NCBI GenBank assembly: GCA_963705505.1
Contig: CAVPJU010000006.1
Span: forward strand, 72,533 to 136,532
From: an uncultured bacterium
GTDB lineage: Bacteria; Desulfobacterota_D; UBA1144; Nemesobacterales; UBA2774
DNA length: 64,000 bases
Reading direction: 5' to 3'
In this document: positions 32,530-38,564 of the stretch, one piece after another
Layout of the letters: each line of letters opens with the position of its first letter
Numbering within the stretch: position 1 is the stretch's first letter
Notes under the pieces: model-generated
Told to the model about the DNA's origin: nothing
Database searches by the model: none
Seen by the model: only the letters and a program-made list of their open reading frames with translations
Made by a program: the position numbers and the translations under genes

Positions 32530-34194
32530 TCAGAGGAAGATATTTGAAAGATATTCCGTGAGGTCGCTCTTGCTCGCGGGCTGGTTCCTGAACCCGATGT
32601 AGCCGTCCGGGCGAATGAGATAGAGGCTCGATTTCGCGGCGCCGAAATCGCCGTGCATGAGGTCTCCCTCGTCCGTCCATACGGAGCTAATTTGCATGAG
32701 ATCAGGCGGAAGCCCCTTGCAGCCGACGATTAAATGAGGCTTAATAAGACCAATAAACTCTTCGTCGATAGTGGCGAGTATTTTTCTGAGCTCGTCGAAT
32801 TCCATATCCTCGGGCTCCGCACCCGTGAAGATCAGGAGCTCATGCTCCGCCCCCTTAAAAAGGTCATAAAGCTGTATTCCGCTTTTGCCGTCAAGGCTGA
32901 GAAGCGTGTAGTCCCCGACCCTCTCTCCGGCTTTAAGATCATGGTGGTGTTTATGATCCCCGGGAATCTCCCCCGACCGATACCACCTCTCATCGACTAT
33001 CGGGCTTTCCCCGTAGTTGATCTCTATCTGGGACAAGGTCGTGAGTATCCTTTCCTGAACCGCGTCGAGCTTCGACAGCGTGCCAACGAGCTTATTCCGT
33101 ATAGCGCTCAGAACAGGGTTATGTATCCCGACCATCCTGGTAGCCATGTCCGTCAAGCCGACCACGCCCTCTCCGACGCGGTGTCTTTCCGCATTGTAGC
33201 TATCGAGGAGGCTTTCGGGCGAGCTGCCCTTGAGCACCAGAGCGAGCTTCCACGCAAGGTTATACGAGTCCTGTATCCCCGTATTCATCCCCTGTCCGCC
33301 GATAGGGCTGTGTATGTGCGCGGCGTCTCCGCATAAGAAGACCCTCCCTTCGCCGTATTTATCGACCATGCGGTGATGGAGCTTGAAGTAGGCAAGCCAA
33401 TTGGGATCGCTCACGCTTTTATAGTCGATCTCCCTCTCGCTCATGAGCCTCCTGACATCCTCGATCGTCGGCTCGGGCAGCCCTTCGTCCACATGAGCAT
33501 CGGGCAGCTCGAACATTAGTCTCCCCCTGTCGCTGTAAAGCGGGAAATAGGCCGTCACTCCCCGTGGATGTATAAAGACCGACAGGTGATGGAGGGGGTA
33601 GCTCCAGTCGAGGTTGCAATCTGCCAGGAGCCAGTAATTGGGGTAGGGGGCGCCCTTGAACTCGAGGTCGAGAACGTGACGTGACGTGCTGTGAGCCCCG
33701 TCGCACCCAGCTATGTATTTGCAATCGACAAATTCCTCGGAGCCGTCCTTTAACCTTAAGCGGGCAGCGATCCCGCTATCCGTCCGCTCGATCCCCAGAA
33801 GCTCTTTCTCGCGCTCGACCTTGACGCCGTAGGATTCCAGATGCTCGTTCAATATCCTTTCGGTGTCGCTCTGCGCAAGGATGAGGAAAAAGGGATATTT
33901 GCTTTCGAGTGTGTCGAAAATGACATGCGCCAGGGGTTTCCCGTGATTGTACATATCAAAGCCGTTACAGATGTTGCCCTTTTTGAGCACCGTGTCCACG
34001 ATGCCGATGTTCTCGAAGAGCTCGAGAGTCCGGGCGTGTATTCCGAAAGCCTTCGATTTATCCGAAGGGGCCGGGGCCTTGTCTATGATTCTTGGCGTGA
34101 TTCCGTGCCTTGCGAGCTCGCATGCCATCGTAAGCCCGGTCGGTCCCGCGCCTACCACGAGCACGTCTGCGTGTGAGTCATTGGAAGCTGTCAT
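32530..34194 (-). CDS. FAD-dependent monooxygenase (PheA/TfdB aromatic hydroxylase family)
   Basis: VVGAGPTGL, GCDGAHS, GRVFLCGDAAHIHSPIGGQGMNTGIQD, DSYNAER, C-terminal LIRPDGYIG. Confidence 0.92.
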   Translation of the reverse strand: MTASNDSHADVLVVGAGPTGLTMACELARHGITPRIIDKAPAPSDKSKAFGIHARTLELFENIGIVDTVLKKGNICNGFDMYNHGKPLAHVIFDTLESKYPFFLILAQSDTERILNEHLESYGVKVEREKELLGIERTDSGIAARLRLKDGSEEFVDCKYIAGCDGAHSTSRHVLDLEFKGAPYPNYWLLADCNLDWSYPLHHLSVFIHPRGVTAYFPLYSDRGRLMFELPDAHVDEGLPEPTIEDVRRLMSEREIDYKSVSDPNWLAYFKLHHRMVDKYGEGRVFLCGDAAHIHSPIGGQGMNTGIQDSYNLAWKLALVLKGSSPESLLDSYNAERHRVGEGVVGLTDMATRMVGIHNPVLSAIRNKLVGTLSKLDAVQERILTTLSQIEINYGESPIVDERWYRSGEIPGDHKHHHDLKAGERVGDYTLLSLDGKSGIQLYDLFKGAEHELLIFTGAEPEDMEFDELRKILATIDEEFIGLIKPHLIVGCKGLPPDLMQISSVWTDEGDLMHGDFGAAKSSLYLIRPDGYIGFRNQPASKSDLTEYLSNIFL

Positions 34195-34380
34195 ACGAGT
34201 CTCCTCAAGCGCATGATGTTGTCACTTCAATCAAAATAATTCAGGAATCCATAACAATTCGACAGAGTGTGTCGATATAATCAAATTATACATCCCGGAG
34301 AACGCCCGGTGAAATAAATGACGGATGAAGGAGGGCCTTCGGATTCGTATATCTGAGATTTAATCGGAGCCGCTTCCTTT

Positions 34381-35430
34381 TTACTTCAGGAACTGTTTCA
34401 GGGGGCCCTGGGGATTAATCATCCCTTTGAGATCACTGTAGCCGACGAGAACAAAATACGGCCCTTCGACGTAAGGGCCCACTGCATACGGGGCGAAAGC
34501 GAACGTGATACCCCGGGGAGAGACAGCGAAAACGCTCAGGTCACCGGCCTTAAGCTCCTTCAATTCCCCGTTCAATACCCATCCGGCCTTCTGCTTTCTG
34601 AGATCGCCTATGCAATAACCGGAGAGTGCTTTTATAAAATCCGAATTGGGCTTAAAAAGGTCCGGCAAATTCAGAAGTAATGCCTTGCCGTCCTTTATCC
34701 AGTAATTCGAAGACATGTATAAGGTATTACCGTGGGCGCCGCCGGTGTAGGAAAAGACCTCCCCTGAGAGACTGACCAATTCAGGCGAATAATATTCAAT
34801 CGAGTAGCTGTAGTCTTCCTGCCAGCCGCCGGCAGAATCCCGAGTGGTGAAAAAATCCTCCGCTTCTTCCGCGAATTTTTTTCTTTCCGAGGCGGCTCCT
34901 TTCTCCAGTCTGTCCGTTATTTCACGGAAAGCCTTGGTGTCCGATAAAAAGTAAGGGTACATATAGGACGCCTCATATTTACCTCCCCCGTTTGCATTCG
35001 TTGAAACGAAGTCGGCGACCTTAGTGAGCTTAAAGGGTAACGTCGTGAGTCCGTTCGCCTTTGACCACTTACCTTCTATGACCTTCCCGAAATCCTTCCC
35101 GTCACCGCGGACCGTCCCCGTAAAAGTTCCAGTTTTGCTCCCCTTTTCATCCTGCTCCACGAGCGTAATTGCAGAGGAGTTGTAGTCCGCCTCCCCGGTA
35201 AGAGCAATCGGGATGCCGACTTTGTCATACATATACGATCCAGAAGCGTCTCCCGAGTCAATTATCAGCTCCATCTGCACGTCGAGATTATCCCCTATGG
35301 TCCCGACGTAGTAATAACGCGATTCCCCTCCCTGCTTGTCCTGCGCCGGCAGGGGTAAACAAAAAAAATTACAAAGAGCTATGGAAAATACGAGAATTAA
35401 AGCCGGCTTAGAGAGCCTCGACATTATCAT
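34381..35430 (-). CDS. Secreted DUF3298/DUF4163 (RsiV/PdaC-like) protein
   Basis: Signal peptide, then SYTGGAHGN and FAFAPYAVGPYVEG motifs, with an extra N-terminal beta-rich domain (YVGTIG...GSYMY...FTG). Confidence 0.75.
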   Translation of the reverse strand: MIMSRLSKPALILVFSIALCNFFCLPLPAQDKQGGESRYYYVGTIGDNLDVQMELIIDSGDASGSYMYDKVGIPIALTGEADYNSSAITLVEQDEKGSKTGTFTGTVRGDGKDFGKVIEGKWSKANGLTTLPFKLTKVADFVSTNANGGGKYEASYMYPYFLSDTKAFREITDRLEKGAASERKKFAEEAEDFFTTRDSAGGWQEDYSYSIEYYSPELVSLSGEVFSYTGGAHGNTLYMSSNYWIKDGKALLLNLPDLFKPNSDFIKALSGYCIGDLRKQKAGWVLNGELKELKAGDLSVFAVSPRGITFAFAPYAVGPYVEGPYFVLVGYSDLKGMINPQGPLKQFLK

Positions 35431-35542
35431 CTTTCACCCCCGGGAGGTCGATCAAGAACGATTATAGAATATTACGCTCAAAGCAATAAGGTGTACATCG
35501 TCCCCGGAGACTTGCTTCTTTTTGTCGCTAATTATCGGAATC

Positions 35543-35574
35543 TGTCATACCGCCCTTTGACAACTTTTGTCAAA
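35543..35574. promoter_or_regulatory. Candidate enhancer (UAS) for a sigma54 activator
   Basis: Overlapping palindromes TGTCA-N10-TGACA (35543-62) and TTTGACAA-N3-TTGTCAAA (35556-74), 130-160 bp upstream of the predicted sigma54 start site. Confidence 0.5.
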
Positions 35575-35679
35575 AAAGTACAAAAAATTTACCGCTTTTC
35601 CCCGTTTAATATATACATGCACCATTTCGATATTTATATTATGCAATAATCAGAGCAAGTTGTATCGTATCATTACATT

Positions 35680-35695
35680 TGGCACGCGCATTGCA
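35680..35695 (+). promoter_or_regulatory. Sigma54 (-24/-12) promoter
   Basis: TGGCAC-GCGCA-TTGCA matches the TGGCAC-N5-TTGCW consensus exactly, in an AT-rich intergenic region. Predicted +1 near 35706. Confidence 0.75.
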
Positions 35696-35705
35696 TAATA
35701 TCGGA

Positions 35706-35880
35706 TTAAGTTTTGTAGCAAATTAATGAGTTGATTCCAGAATCGAATTTGCGGAGTCACGAGAGAATGGAAAGTTTGAAACAAAACGTATCGATTGACT
35801 TAAAGCTGGCCATAACATATTCCCCATCCTCTAAAGGGTGGATCCTTGAAGAAATTCATGGGTTCACCCTTATTTCATCT
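35706..35880 (+). ncRNA. Candidate sigma54-dependent small RNA (ends approximate)
   Basis: Lies downstream of the sigma54 promoter with no annotated + strand gene. Contains a 16-bp hairpin at 35834-35871 with two G-U pairs and a GAAA tetraloop, both favourable only on the + strand. Confidence 0.4.
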
Positions 35881-35901
35881 CCTGACTTTATCACCGGATA
35901 A
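35767..35901 (+). CDS. Possible 44-aa small protein, MESLKQNVSIDLKLAITYSPSSKGWILEEIHGFTLISSPDFITG
   Basis: ATG 35767 to TAA 35901, with GGAG 10 nt upstream. Below the ORF-track cutoff; no recognised homolog. Confidence 0.3.
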   Translation: MESLKQNVSIDLKLAITYSPSSKGWILEEIHGFTLISSPDFITG

Positions 35902-35917
35902 ATTTAGGTATTCACTA

Positions 35918-36703
35918 TCATTCACTATTCCCTATATTGAGGGAAAGAACTTTCATCATTTCTTCGTGAATGCCGCCATTGGACGCGAGGATTTCCTTTA
36001 CATAGATGCTGTAATCCCCGCCCGTCAAATTCGTTACCCTGCCCCCCGCTTCCTCTACGATCAGAACCCCCGCAGCCGTGTCCCAGGGGTTAAGGCCGAG
36101 CTCCCAGAATCCGTCGAACCGGCCGCAGGCAAGGTAACAGAGGTCAAGCGCCGCCGAACCGTCCCTTCTCACCGATCTTGCCCTCCTGATGAAATCGGCG
36201 AAGTGCTTCAGATTCTCCTCGACCATCCTGATATCGTCATGAACGAAACCTGTGACGAGGTGGCCCTCGTCGAGGCGCACGGCACCGGTTACGTGTATCG
36301 CCTCTCCGTTCAAAAAAGCCCCGCTGCCGAACTCAGCCGAAAACAACTCGTCTTTAATCGGGTCGTAGACCAGGCCCGCCCTCACAACGCCTTCGATCTC
36401 AAGCGCTATGGATACGGAAAAAAAAGGGTAGCCGTGGGCGAAATTGGTAGTGCCGTCGAGCGGGTCTATTATCCACACGTATTCGGAATTTGCCGACTGC
36501 CTGCCCGACTCTTCCGCAAATATGTCGTGGGAGGGGAAACTCCTCTTTATGCAGTCGATAATAATTTCCTCGGCCTGCTTATCGACTTCGGTCACGAGGC
36601 TGTTCTTGCCTTTATAGGTTATTTCTTTTACCTTCCCTGATTTTTCCCTTAAAAGCTCCCCCGCCTCCCTTGCGGCTTTTTCAGCGACTTTTATATATAT
36701 CAA
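35918..36703 (-). CDS. suhB: Inositol monophosphatase family protein
   Basis: VTEVD, WIIDPLDGTTNFAHG, RRDGSAALDLCYLACGRFDGFWE, PWDTAAG. TTG start with AGGAG RBS. Confidence 0.93.
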   Translation of the reverse strand: MIYIKVAEKAAREAGELLREKSGKVKEITYKGKNSLVTEVDKQAEEIIIDCIKRSFPSHDIFAEESGRQSANSEYVWIIDPLDGTTNFAHGYPFFSVSIALEIEGVVRAGLVYDPIKDELFSAEFGSGAFLNGEAIHVTGAVRLDEGHLVTGFVHDDIRMVEENLKHFADFIRRARSVRRDGSAALDLCYLACGRFDGFWELGLNPWDTAAGVLIVEEAGGRVTNLTGGDYSIYVKEILASNGGIHEEMMKVLSLNIGNSE

Positions 36704-36870
36704 GACATACTCCTGAGTGGGATGATTTTATAAAAAGCTCTGATAATCTATGCTTAATCAAAGATTCCGACTCTGTGAGCGGGAACCTTTCTTGACGAAC
36801 CGGGCGTACACATTACCCCTATTTCGAATACCAGGATATTTATTCGAAGACCGCGGCTCAATACCGAGGA

Positions 36871-37074
36871 TCAATCAGCAGGCGTTTCCGGTATTATTAT
36901 CCAGCCCAATATGTAGACAATCACAGCCGTACCGAGAGTAAAAAGCGCGATCAAGGCAAATATGAGTCTTATCAGAGTGGGATCGATTGAAAACATCTCG
37001 CCGAGGCCGCCGCATATGCCCCCTAACATCCTGTCGGTTCTCGAACGGTAGAGCTTCTTTATATTATCAGCCAT
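36871..37074 (-). CDS. PspC domain-containing membrane protein
   Basis: KKLYRSRTDRMLGGICGGLGEMFSIDPTLIRL...YILGWIIIP. Confidence 0.92.
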   Translation of the reverse strand: MADNIKKLYRSRTDRMLGGICGGLGEMFSIDPTLIRLIFALIALFTLGTAVIVYILGWIIIPETPAD

Positions 37075-37336
37075 GGTTCACCCCCGAATTGAATTATAAA
37101 GGAGTATACCTAAATATAACGCCCGGATTATCTATTTTAATTGAACCTTAATGCGGATACGCCCCATATAAGAATTCACGGGACCTCGTCTACGGAAAAA
37201 ACATTTACCATGAATTATAGGCTTATTGTTTATCATTGCCGCTGAGCTATAATAATCCGGGCGGCGATGCCGGAGCGTCGCGAATTACGGGTTTAAGGTT
37301 CGATACCCAAGAGAAAATTACGAGGAGAGTCAGCAT

Positions 37337-37759
37337 ATGAGTGGTTCACTGAAGCCCGGAATGACTTTCGAGTTCGATTTCACAATACCGGAGTCGAAAA
37401 CCGTTCCGTACATATATCCCGAATCAGAGGAATTCCAGATTATGCCGAAAGTCTTCTCAACGGGGTTCATGATAGGCCTTATCGAATGGGCGTGCGTCAG
37501 GTTCGTCAACAACCACATCGACTGGCCGCGTGAGCAGACCGTCGGCATAGACGTGAATCTGAACCATACGGCCGCGACCCCTCCCGGATTGACCGTAAAC
37601 GTGAAAGGGGAGCTCATCGACGTTGACGGCAGGAAACTGACGTTTTCTATTGTCGCTCACGACGGTATAGACGTGATATCGGAGGGGACGCACCAGAGAT
37701 TCATAGTCGACGCCGAGAGGTTCAGAGCCAGAGTCGAGAAGAAAGCGAAACCGGAATAA
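37337..37759 (+). CDS. Hot-dog thioesterase, fluoroacetyl-CoA thioesterase (FlK) family
   Basis: KTV..IYPES.EF lid, VFSTGFMIGLIEWAC, HTAATPPGL, GTHQR. Thr42/Glu50/His77/Arg121 present. Confidence 0.88.
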   Translation: MSGSLKPGMTFEFDFTIPESKTVPYIYPESEEFQIMPKVFSTGFMIGLIEWACVRFVNNHIDWPREQTVGIDVNLNHTAATPPGLTVNVKGELIDVDGRKLTFSIVAHDGIDVISEGTHQRFIVDAERFRARVEKKAKPE

Positions 37760-37820
37760 CGGGACCGCGCACAATTTTCACATTTTAAGCGCGCCATTCC
37801 GATTGCCGGATGCAGGTGCA

Positions 37821-38564
37821 ATGAATAAAAACGATACTGCAAATAAGAAAATAGATACATCCGCCGTAAAAGCTCTTACATTCGATGTTTTCGGGACAGT
37901 CGTAGACTGGAGGTCTTCGATTATCAGGGAATGCAGTCTCCTCGGGAAATCGAAGGGGATCGAGGCGGACTGGCCCCGGTTCGCCGACTCCTGGCGCGCG
38001 GGCTACGCCCCCGCCATGAACCGCGTCCGCACGGGCGAGCTGCCGTGGATGAGCATCGATTCCCTTCACAGGATGGTACTCGAGAAACTCCTTCAGCAAT
38101 TCGGTATCGAAGGTCTATCCGAGAGCGAGAAAGACGACCTCAACCGGGCATGGCACAGGCTCACACCCTGGCCCGATTCAGTCGAAGGGCTCGAAAGGAT
38201 TCGGAAAAGATATGTTACCGCAACTTTATCAAACGGAAATATCTCGCTTCTCGTAAACATGGCGAAATATGCGGGGCTCACCTGGGACTGCGTGCTCTCT
38301 TCAGAGCTTGCGAACCATTATAAGCCCGATAAGGAGGTATATCTGACGGCGGCAGGATTGCTCGGACTCGAGCCTGAGAACGTCATGATGGTCGCCGCGC
38401 ATACGGATGATCTTCTGGCGGCAAAGGCCCTTGGTTTCAAGACCGCTTTTGTCTGGAGGCCTCTTGAGTTCGGTCCCCCGGGCGAGACTGAGGAAAAAGA
38501 AGAGATGCCGTTTGATATAGTCGCCCGTGATTTCAACGACCTCGCAGAAAAGCTCGGAGCATGA
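37821..38564 (+). CDS. Haloacid dehalogenase type II (L-2-haloacid dehalogenase)
   Basis: FDVFGTVVDWR, WRAGY, AWHRLTPWPDS, LSNGN, YKPD, VAAHTDDL. ATG 37821 chosen. Confidence 0.9.
   Translation: MNKNDTANKKIDTSAVKALTFDVFGTVVDWRSSIIRECSLLGKSKGIEADWPRFADSWRAGYAPAMNRVRTGELPWMSIDSLHRMVLEKLLQQFGIEGLSESEKDDLNRAWHRLTPWPDSVEGLERIRKRYVTATLSNGNISLLVNMAKYAGLTWDCVLSSELANHYKPDKEVYLTAAGLLGLEPENVMMVAAHTDDLLAAKALGFKTAFVWRPLEFGPPGETEEKEEMPFDIVARDFNDLAEKLGA

Follow-up and report, generated by a model that had tools for sequence, protein, structure and literature searches.

The intergenic locus and its sigma-54 promoter

The DNA analysed here (the window) is a 64-kb stretch, part of a 2.88-Mb assembly in 10 contigs from an uncultured member of Candidatus (Ca.) Dadabacteria. 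Positions 35431-35917 of the window form a 487-bp intergenic gap that is bounded on both sides by minus-strand genes. To its left is a gene for a DUF3298/PdaC-domain lipoprotein-like protein (positions 34381-35430, minus strand; Pfam PF11738 and PF13739), and to its right is a SuhB-type inositol monophosphatase gene (positions 35918-36703, minus strand; Pfam PF00459, 2.7e-72). Within the gap lie, in this order, a palindromic upstream activator site, a sigma-54 (-24/-12) promoter and a predicted small RNA (sRNA) on the plus strand, which is convergent with suhB. The sRNA has an invariant C/U-rich tract, termed the seed below, that is followed by a terminator hairpin. Judged from its sequence features and from their conservation in relatives, the gap very probably holds a real, conserved, sigma-54-dependent non-coding RNA gene. 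In what follows, C-numbers (C1, C6, C10 and so on) designate contigs of the same genome, and g and f designate genera and families, respectively, among the relatives.

The promoter, TGGCACgcgcaTTGCA, is at positions 35680-35695 (plus strand) and is conserved in relatives. The site (TGGCACGCGCATTGCA) is the single match to TGGCAC-N5-TTGCW in the 64 kb, where 0.01 matches are expected; one of 100 shuffled sequences had a match. Because both neighbouring genes are on the minus strand, the promoter aims at no plus-strand gene. The original prediction had described this promoter, TGGCAC-N5-TTGCA, as facing no plus-strand gene and with suhB converging from position 35918, and both parts of the description are borne out. 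The machinery presupposed by such a promoter is encoded in the genome. There is an rpoN gene (Sigma54_DBD match of 3.8e-54 in a 525-aa frame) as well as 11 full-length bacterial enhancer-binding proteins (bEBPs) with a Sigma54_activat domain. The whole genome has 27 strict sigma-54 sites versus approximately 5.5 by chance, the latter being our own estimate. The majority of these sites are 10-125 nt upstream of open reading frames (ORFs), and the sigma-54 motif is therefore in real use in this genome.

Related loci were compared wherever both the seed motif and the upstream DNA are readable. GGCAC-N5-TTGC precedes the seed in each of 21 such genome loci and in each of the 16 metagenome contigs that are genuine. 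The metagenome search gave 20 pattern matches, of which four were left out as they represent one unrelated gut/oral sequence without the hairpin. The 5-nt promoter spacer varies between relatives while the GGCAC and TTGC elements are invariant, and the distance from the promoter to the seed tract ranges from 42 to 145 nt. Two other promoter-like signals were discounted. One is a weak sigma-70-like match over the promoter, whose -35 part is not conserved. The other is a -24/-12-like motif upstream of a related RNA in family f2 (G038), which is not counted because it is situated within the apparent body of that RNA, a sibling RNA that is described below. Elsewhere in the genome, there is a further strict sigma-54 promoter without a long ORF behind it (C8:53087, plus strand). 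Downstream of it is a receiver-like start (MSSARIMVVEDSG...) of less than 60 codons, possibly from a broken response-regulator gene.

The upstream activator site (positions 35543-35574) contains a rare palindrome that is common to several sigma-54 promoters of the genome and that is kept in relatives. Its 15-bp core, TGACAACTTTTGTCA (TGACA-N5-TGTCA), is at positions 35558-35572, 122 bp upstream of the promoter. An additional TGTCA half-site (positions 35543-35547) is separated from the TGACA at positions 35558-35562 by an N10 spacing, and a palindrome of the form TTTGACAA-CTT-TTGTCAAA spans positions 35556-35574. These enhancer palindromes had been pointed out in the original prediction and are at the positions given there. 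The distance between the palindrome and the sRNA promoter is constant at 121-122 bp in 10 of 10 genomes of the genus. The sRNA palindrome recurs with no more than one mismatch in genera g3, g5 and g6. Between the activator site and the promoter is an A/T-rich block, ATATTATGCAATAATCAGAGCAAGTTG (positions 35636-35662), that is conserved in the genus alignment and may represent a DNA-bending region. Inspection by eye of the interval between the activator site and the promoter gave no convincing consensus for an IHF site.

The predicted RNA and its phylogenetic conservation

The predicted sRNA is approximately 172-175 nt in length (positions 35706-35880, plus strand). Its start is placed from promoter geometry, with the putative +1 at position 35706, 12 nt downstream of the -12 C at position 35694, and its end from the hairpin and U-rich tail. 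The 5' body (positions 35706-35809) is variable and poorly conserved, and its indels are not multiples of three. Its length is approximately 100 nt in the genus to which this genome belongs, approximately 30-45 nt in genera g3 and g6, and only some 15 nt in the majority of g4 genomes. Downstream of it is the single-stranded C/U-rich seed, CCAUAACAUAUUCCCCAUCCUCUA (positions 35810-35833). The seed contains a 16-nt invariant core, UAUUCCCCAUCCUCUA (positions 35818-35833), that is identical in all homologues from five genera. Secondary structure modeling of 16 predicted full-length RNAs shows the seed tract as unpaired, with a mean probability of 0.50-0.95. The complement of the seed resembles a Shine-Dalgarno (SD)-spacer-AUG region.

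The terminator hairpin and its U-rich tail are at positions 35834-35880 (plus strand). The hairpin itself (positions 35834-35871) consists of a 12-bp stem, an internal U/U mismatch, a 4-bp stem and a GAAA loop. Folding of a 205-nt stretch gave z = -2.15 on the plus strand vs z = -0.16 on the minus strand, in agreement with the earlier suggestion that the hairpin is strand-specific. There are compensatory base changes in 7 of 14 pairs of the hairpin, with 97% of cells paired. None of 500 shuffles attained the covariation score, a slid pairing partner left 18-57% paired, and the covariation result was reproduced on 27 distinct sequences. In most relatives the sequence UUAUUUUUU directly follows the hairpin. 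The original prediction had placed anti-SD-like tracts on both sides of the hairpin. The first of these is the invariant tract; the second (CATCTCCT, positions 35877-35884) is not conserved, and there is a U-run in relatives.

The same cassette is found in approximately 30 Ca. Dadabacteria loci from five genera, as well as in metagenome contigs. Its order is palindrome, -24/-12 promoter, variable 5' body, invariant tract, covarying hairpin and, usually, a U-run. When 40 relatives were searched at the DNA level, the region was matched in all nine remaining genomes of the genus, and several further genera of the family had it as well. Conservation is by far the highest at positions 35808-35875, with 78-94% identity between genera. 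In five genera of the family, strong matches of > 50 bits were obtained with a covariance model of the seed-hairpin module, termed R1. The predicted homologous RNAs range from 71 to 178 nt and share a common architecture. A search of positions 34000-38000 with cmscan (E <= 1) gave no match in Rfam, including the Qrr and GlmY families. The original proposal of an undescribed regulatory sRNA is thereby upheld, inasmuch as promoter, seed and hairpin are conserved across the five genera and the sequence comparisons point to a new family.

The position of the cassette is conserved as well. The DUF3298 gene is beside the sRNA in five genera, and suhB is beside it in every family locus that carries the sRNA. 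In the sRNA-bearing genera, the cassette is invariably between suhB and the DUF3298 gene and in the opposite orientation to both. Genus g2 has no cassette; there the DUF3298 gene begins 25-40 bp past suhB, i.e., the flanking genes abut, and it follows that the whole cassette of approximately 450-490 bp is simply absent in g2. DNA of the lineage is seen in peat, wetland, soil, rice-paddy and freshwater-sediment metagenomes. Three database records with other labels carry a g4-type sRNA, namely L018 and L025 ('uncultured Spirochaetia') and L169 ('human oral metagenome'). L018 and L025 also have the DUF3298/suhB synteny that is typical of Dadabacteria. The labels of the three records are probably wrong, or the samples contaminated.

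The coding potential of the transcript was analyzed on both strands. On the plus strand there is an ATG ORF of 44 codons at positions 35768-35901, or of 56 codons when counted from a TTG at position 35731. The original prediction had noted the 44-codon ORF and considered a dual function for the RNA. The ORF is indeed present, with a GGAG 10 nt upstream of its ATG, and the transcript could be read as an mRNA for a peptide of 44 or 56 residues, i.e., a dual-function RNA or a micro-protein gene. However, every other genome of the genus has this frame closed (it runs for 13-24 codons, mostly with no start), and other genera have no homologue of it. Of 16 further loci compared, 14 have just 13-26 open codons in this frame, and mostly lack a start. 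The two longer frames, which are in g4-type loci, have no similarity to the ORF found here. The 5' body with its indels, and its reduction to about 15 nt in most g4 genomes, also speaks against a peptide gene. The ORF (positions 35731-35901, plus strand) was rejected as a part of the element and is considered a chance ORF that is open only in this genome; a peptide-coding role is highly improbable.

A coding role for the minus strand, in which the conserved block is the ribosome-binding site (RBS) and start of a small gene after suhB (AGAGGAUGGGGAAUAUGUUAUGG on the minus strand), is just as improbable. The reverse complement of the seed does resemble an SD sequence and AUG, and a 34-codon minus-strand ORF (positions 35723-35827) begins there. 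However, this frame (MGNMLW), which was rejected, extends for just 7-57 codons in 17 loci, where only the residues imposed by the seed are conserved. The promoter, the G-U pairs and the U-run all indicate the plus strand. As neither the plus-strand nor the minus-strand ORF is conserved, the transcript is considered a non-coding sRNA and not a dual-function RNA.

The R1 model also gives a weaker second match in most genomes. The copy in the same genome is outside the window, at C6:248489-248561 (minus strand), and matches in this class score 33-47 bits. This sibling RNA shares with the sigma-54 sRNA the 3' module CAUCCUC-N-A-N-AGGG(U/C)G...hairpin...CCCUUGUUUUUU. Its seed is CCAUCAUCCUCCA, and it has a sigma-70-like -10 box in place of the -24/-12 promoter. 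It has a 5' GGGUGAUGG tract that is complementary to its own seed GCCAUCAUCCUCCAUA, and then a terminator hairpin and U-run. The sibling RNA is present in genera g1-g4, including g2, which is without the sigma-54 copy, and in families f2, f7 and f8 (loci L121-L138). No credible Rfam match was found for it at a permissive threshold. Since the sibling RNA has the same module and a wider distribution, the sigma-54 sRNA is probably the derived paralogue, i.e., a copy that gained a -24/-12 promoter and a palindrome.

The shared palindrome and the candidate activator

The palindrome TGACA-N5-TGTCA is present at only seven sites in the 2.88-Mb genome. Four of the seven are 90-170 bp upstream of strict sigma-54 promoters; one of these promoters belongs to the sRNA, and the other three serve genes for a type IV pilin, a secreted subtilase and an RpoD-like sigma factor. 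A fifth site precedes, at a distance of approximately 200 bp, a second pilin gene that is in tandem with the first. The two pilin genes, each with a palindrome upstream, are at C6:29223-29495 and C6:30251-30490. The first pilin ORF is 91 aa in this genome vs open frames of approximately 205 aa in relatives, and a truncation or an assembly error is possible. The RpoD-like sigma factor is encoded at C1:57385 and has a sigma-54 promoter with the pilin-type palindrome. It is one of approximately 9-11 RpoD-like sigma paralogues (regions 1.2-4) per 2-3.5-Mb genome, as counted in this genome and in family f1.

Of 19 relatives from five genera, 16 retain both the pilin promoter and its palindrome. The genome has a pilB-pilT-pilC cluster that is followed by a kinase with a 6TM_PilS domain and an adjoining response-regulator bEBP; the PilR-type gene is at C1:134096-135514. 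PilS is found in 22 of 22 genomes of the five sRNA-bearing genera vs none of 11 genomes of g2 and g7. The sigma-54 pilin has the same presence/absence pattern by genus. The sRNA, PilS and the sigma-54 pilin therefore co-occur in five genera and are all absent from two (g2 and g7). Pilin genes are classical sigma-54-dependent targets of PilR in Pseudomonas, Myxococcus and Geobacter, according to works cited in PMC3333781. From the sequence motifs and gene order, the activator of the sRNA promoter is somewhat more probably a PilR-type protein than any other regulator.

Some points weigh against this assignment. The sRNA palindrome of genus g4 is degenerate, with two mismatches. NCBIfam names none of six bEBPs tested, all of which are under every curated cut-off. 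The PilR assignment is inferred from the shared palindrome, the gene neighbourhood and the co-occurrence, and the co-occurrence of sRNA, PilS and pilin may reflect a single evolutionary event. These points bear on an alternative in which the sigma-54 sRNA is real and is activated by another of the 11 bEBPs, with a function unrelated to pili. The number of candidate activators encoded, and the lack of an NCBIfam name for the six tested, are in keeping with such an alternative. It does not account for the retention of the same rare palindrome upstream of pilin genes in five genera, genes that are themselves classical PilR targets, or for the one presence/absence pattern common to PilS, pilin and sRNA. 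A different activator is considered the less likely case, one that nevertheless carries appreciable weight, and the PilR-type protein is retained as the preferred candidate.

Candidate targets, proposed mechanism and significance

Hfq is absent in 33 of 33 family genomes when analyzed with the Pfam model, and the same search detected it in control genomes. A tblastn search gave no match for CsrA, ProQ or Hfq. The strongest site in a genome-wide duplex scan is an uninterrupted stretch of 17 pairs that covers the start codon of a 98-aa ORF. The 98-aa protein (C10:352057-352350, minus strand; orthologues L062-L089) is conserved and has no Pfam match, and a nearly invariant promoter-like sequence, TCTAGGTTATAATATTTCC, is upstream of its gene across the family. 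A second candidate target is an RpoD-like sigma paralogue (C10:146257) whose RBS, AGGAUgaaGGGGAAUAUG, pairs with CAUAUUCCCC and AUCCU. Within the genus, 8 of 10 genomes retain this site, and it is also present in one further genus; orthologues of the paralogue are found only in sRNA-bearing genera. An apparent target site in C2 was rejected, as it falls within an ORF of 511 aa. No notable complementarity to the sRNA was seen in the pil genes or in the members of the regulon.

Two further features of the genome lie outside these candidates. An intergenic repeat similar to repetitive extragenic palindromic (REP) elements is present in approximately 45 copies (e.g., C10:121805, C5:36911 and C9:22091) and has the form TTCC[CT]TCCCC-loop-GGGGGA[AG]GG-N3-GG[AG]TGGGGGTGT. 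The G-rich arm of the repeat (GAGGAUGGGG) is complementary to the sRNA seed. Contigs C9 and C10 encode dozens of ORFs that end in ..PTLSEWGMI.., like sorting signals of the IPTL-CTERM type, and these are clustered on C9.

Considering the data together, the model that we favor is a PilR-type-activated, Hfq-independent, trans-acting sRNA of approximately 175 nt on the plus strand, with a putative anti-SD seed. In this model, a phosphorylated enhancer-binding response regulator would bind the palindrome and would activate RpoN-RNA polymerase. The likeliest regulator would be the PilR-type protein, whose gene adjoins that of the PilS-type kinase in the pilB-pilT-pilC-pilS-pilR cluster. Type IV pilins, the secreted subtilase and the RpoD-like sigma factor, all of which have the same site, would be produced along with the sRNA. 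The exposed seed would then pair, independently of Hfq, with G-rich SD and start-codon regions of target mRNAs, and translation would be blocked. Seed pairing is proposed because an exposed invariant C/U tract beside a terminator is the architecture of sRNAs that occlude the RBS. By analogy with such sRNAs, anti-SD pairing is a reasonably probable mechanism, held with less assurance than the existence of the RNA gene.

Other observations do not favor the model. The 17-nt site at the 98-aa ORF is not conserved in relatives. The site at the sigma paralogue is no stronger in energy than approximately the 1% level of the background, and it is lost in g6 and G007. The target prediction is unspecific: for random windows of 65 nt, the 1% level is at -21.9 kcal/mol and the 0.1% level at -25.2 kcal/mol. 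No RNA run contains the sRNA sequence (the rice-paddy and estuary RNA runs are blank), and the locus is seen only in DNA metagenomes. A 191-nt contig in run X25 coincides with the extent of the sRNA; the type of this run is unknown, and it is probably DNA. Finally, the hairpin tail in this genome, UUAUUUCAUC, is too U-poor, and a terminator scan makes no call there. Because of the U-poor tail, read-through into antisense suhB is possible.

The weak tail, together with the end of suhB only 46 nt away, would fit a mainly cis-acting element, i.e., one that acts on the suhB-DUF3298 unit as an antisense RNA, by transcription interference or as an insulator, with the hairpin as a two-way terminator. 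The constant placement of the cassette between the two genes and against the direction of both, and the abutment of suhB and the DUF3298 gene in g2 as if they were co-transcribed, are also consistent with such an element. A cis role nevertheless leaves unexplained the 16-nt invariant single-stranded tract that directly precedes the hairpin on its 5' side. In most relatives the U-run terminator is strong and would halt antisense read-through, and on the minus strand there are only three U after the hairpin. In addition, unrelated loci carry a related RNA whose seed and terminator are similar. A mainly cis-acting function is therefore regarded as quite unlikely, and the trans-acting sRNA as the better description of the cassette.

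There are documented cases both of sRNAs that depend on sigma-54 and of sigma-54 regulators that control pili (PMC10162802, PMC4152352, PMC10117139, PMC3333781). The closest parallel in organization is Qrr of Vibrio, which is under LuxO and sigma-54. Qrr and the Dadabacteria sRNA both have an orphan intergenic sigma-54 promoter, upstream activator sites, a short RNA in which a terminator hairpin is combined with an invariant, single-stranded seed, and an NtrC-class response regulator as input (PMC10162802), the last of these being putative in Dadabacteria. The two have no sequence or structure match when analyzed by Rfam cmscan. Qrr needs Hfq, whereas the Dadabacteria family is without it. The Dadabacteria seed is C/U-rich and anti-SD-like, and its probable input is a pilus regulator rather than quorum sensing. 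GlmY and GlmZ of Enterobacteria, NcS25 of Burkholderia and Dv_sRNA2 are similar in that they have sigma-54 sRNA promoters under two-component bEBPs (PMC4152352, PMC7073468, PMC10117139, PMC3333781); Dv_sRNA2 of Desulfovibrio vulgaris is a target of the sigma-54 regulator DVU0679. Their sequences are unrelated to that of the Dadabacteria sRNA, none is in a pilin regulon, and GlmY acts as a protein decoy.

RsaE/RoxS of the Firmicutes has an exposed C-rich tract that pairs with G-rich ribosome-binding sites, and Hfq is not needed. The Dadabacteria sRNA is similar in having a C/U-rich seed that is complementary to SD regions in a background without Hfq, and it would act by a comparable mechanism. 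The two are not homologous, and they differ in lineage, in structure and in the type of promoter. The sRNA represents a new RNA family and not a new principle, as sigma-54-driven sRNAs and C-rich anti-SD seeds are already known. We know of no sRNA that has been described as a direct target of PilR.

A more extended scheme can be drawn from these elements. In it, the sRNA would be the post-transcriptional arm of an Hfq-less PilS-PilR circuit that rewires sigma factor use: PilR would directly activate the sigma paralogue at C1:57385, the pilins and the secreted protease, and the sRNA, induced at the same time, would use its anti-SD seed to silence the sigma paralogue at C10:146257. Together with the sibling RNA, the sRNA would then belong to a Dadabacteria-wide family of anti-SD sRNAs. 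This scheme is speculative and, taken as a whole, improbable.

We found no regulatory RNA described for Ca. Dadabacteria, which are common in peat, wetland, soil and sediment metagenomes. The locus defines a well-delimited family of sRNAs. For this family there is a covariance model, the class of promoter is clear, an activator and a regulon can be proposed, and presence and absence follow a clean pattern. The locus also shows that metagenome-assembled genomes are by themselves sufficient for the recognition of sRNA genes and of the inputs that regulate them. If the link to PilR is true, a riboregulator would be added to the pilus regulon, and there would be an example of Hfq-independent seed pairing outside the usual model phyla.

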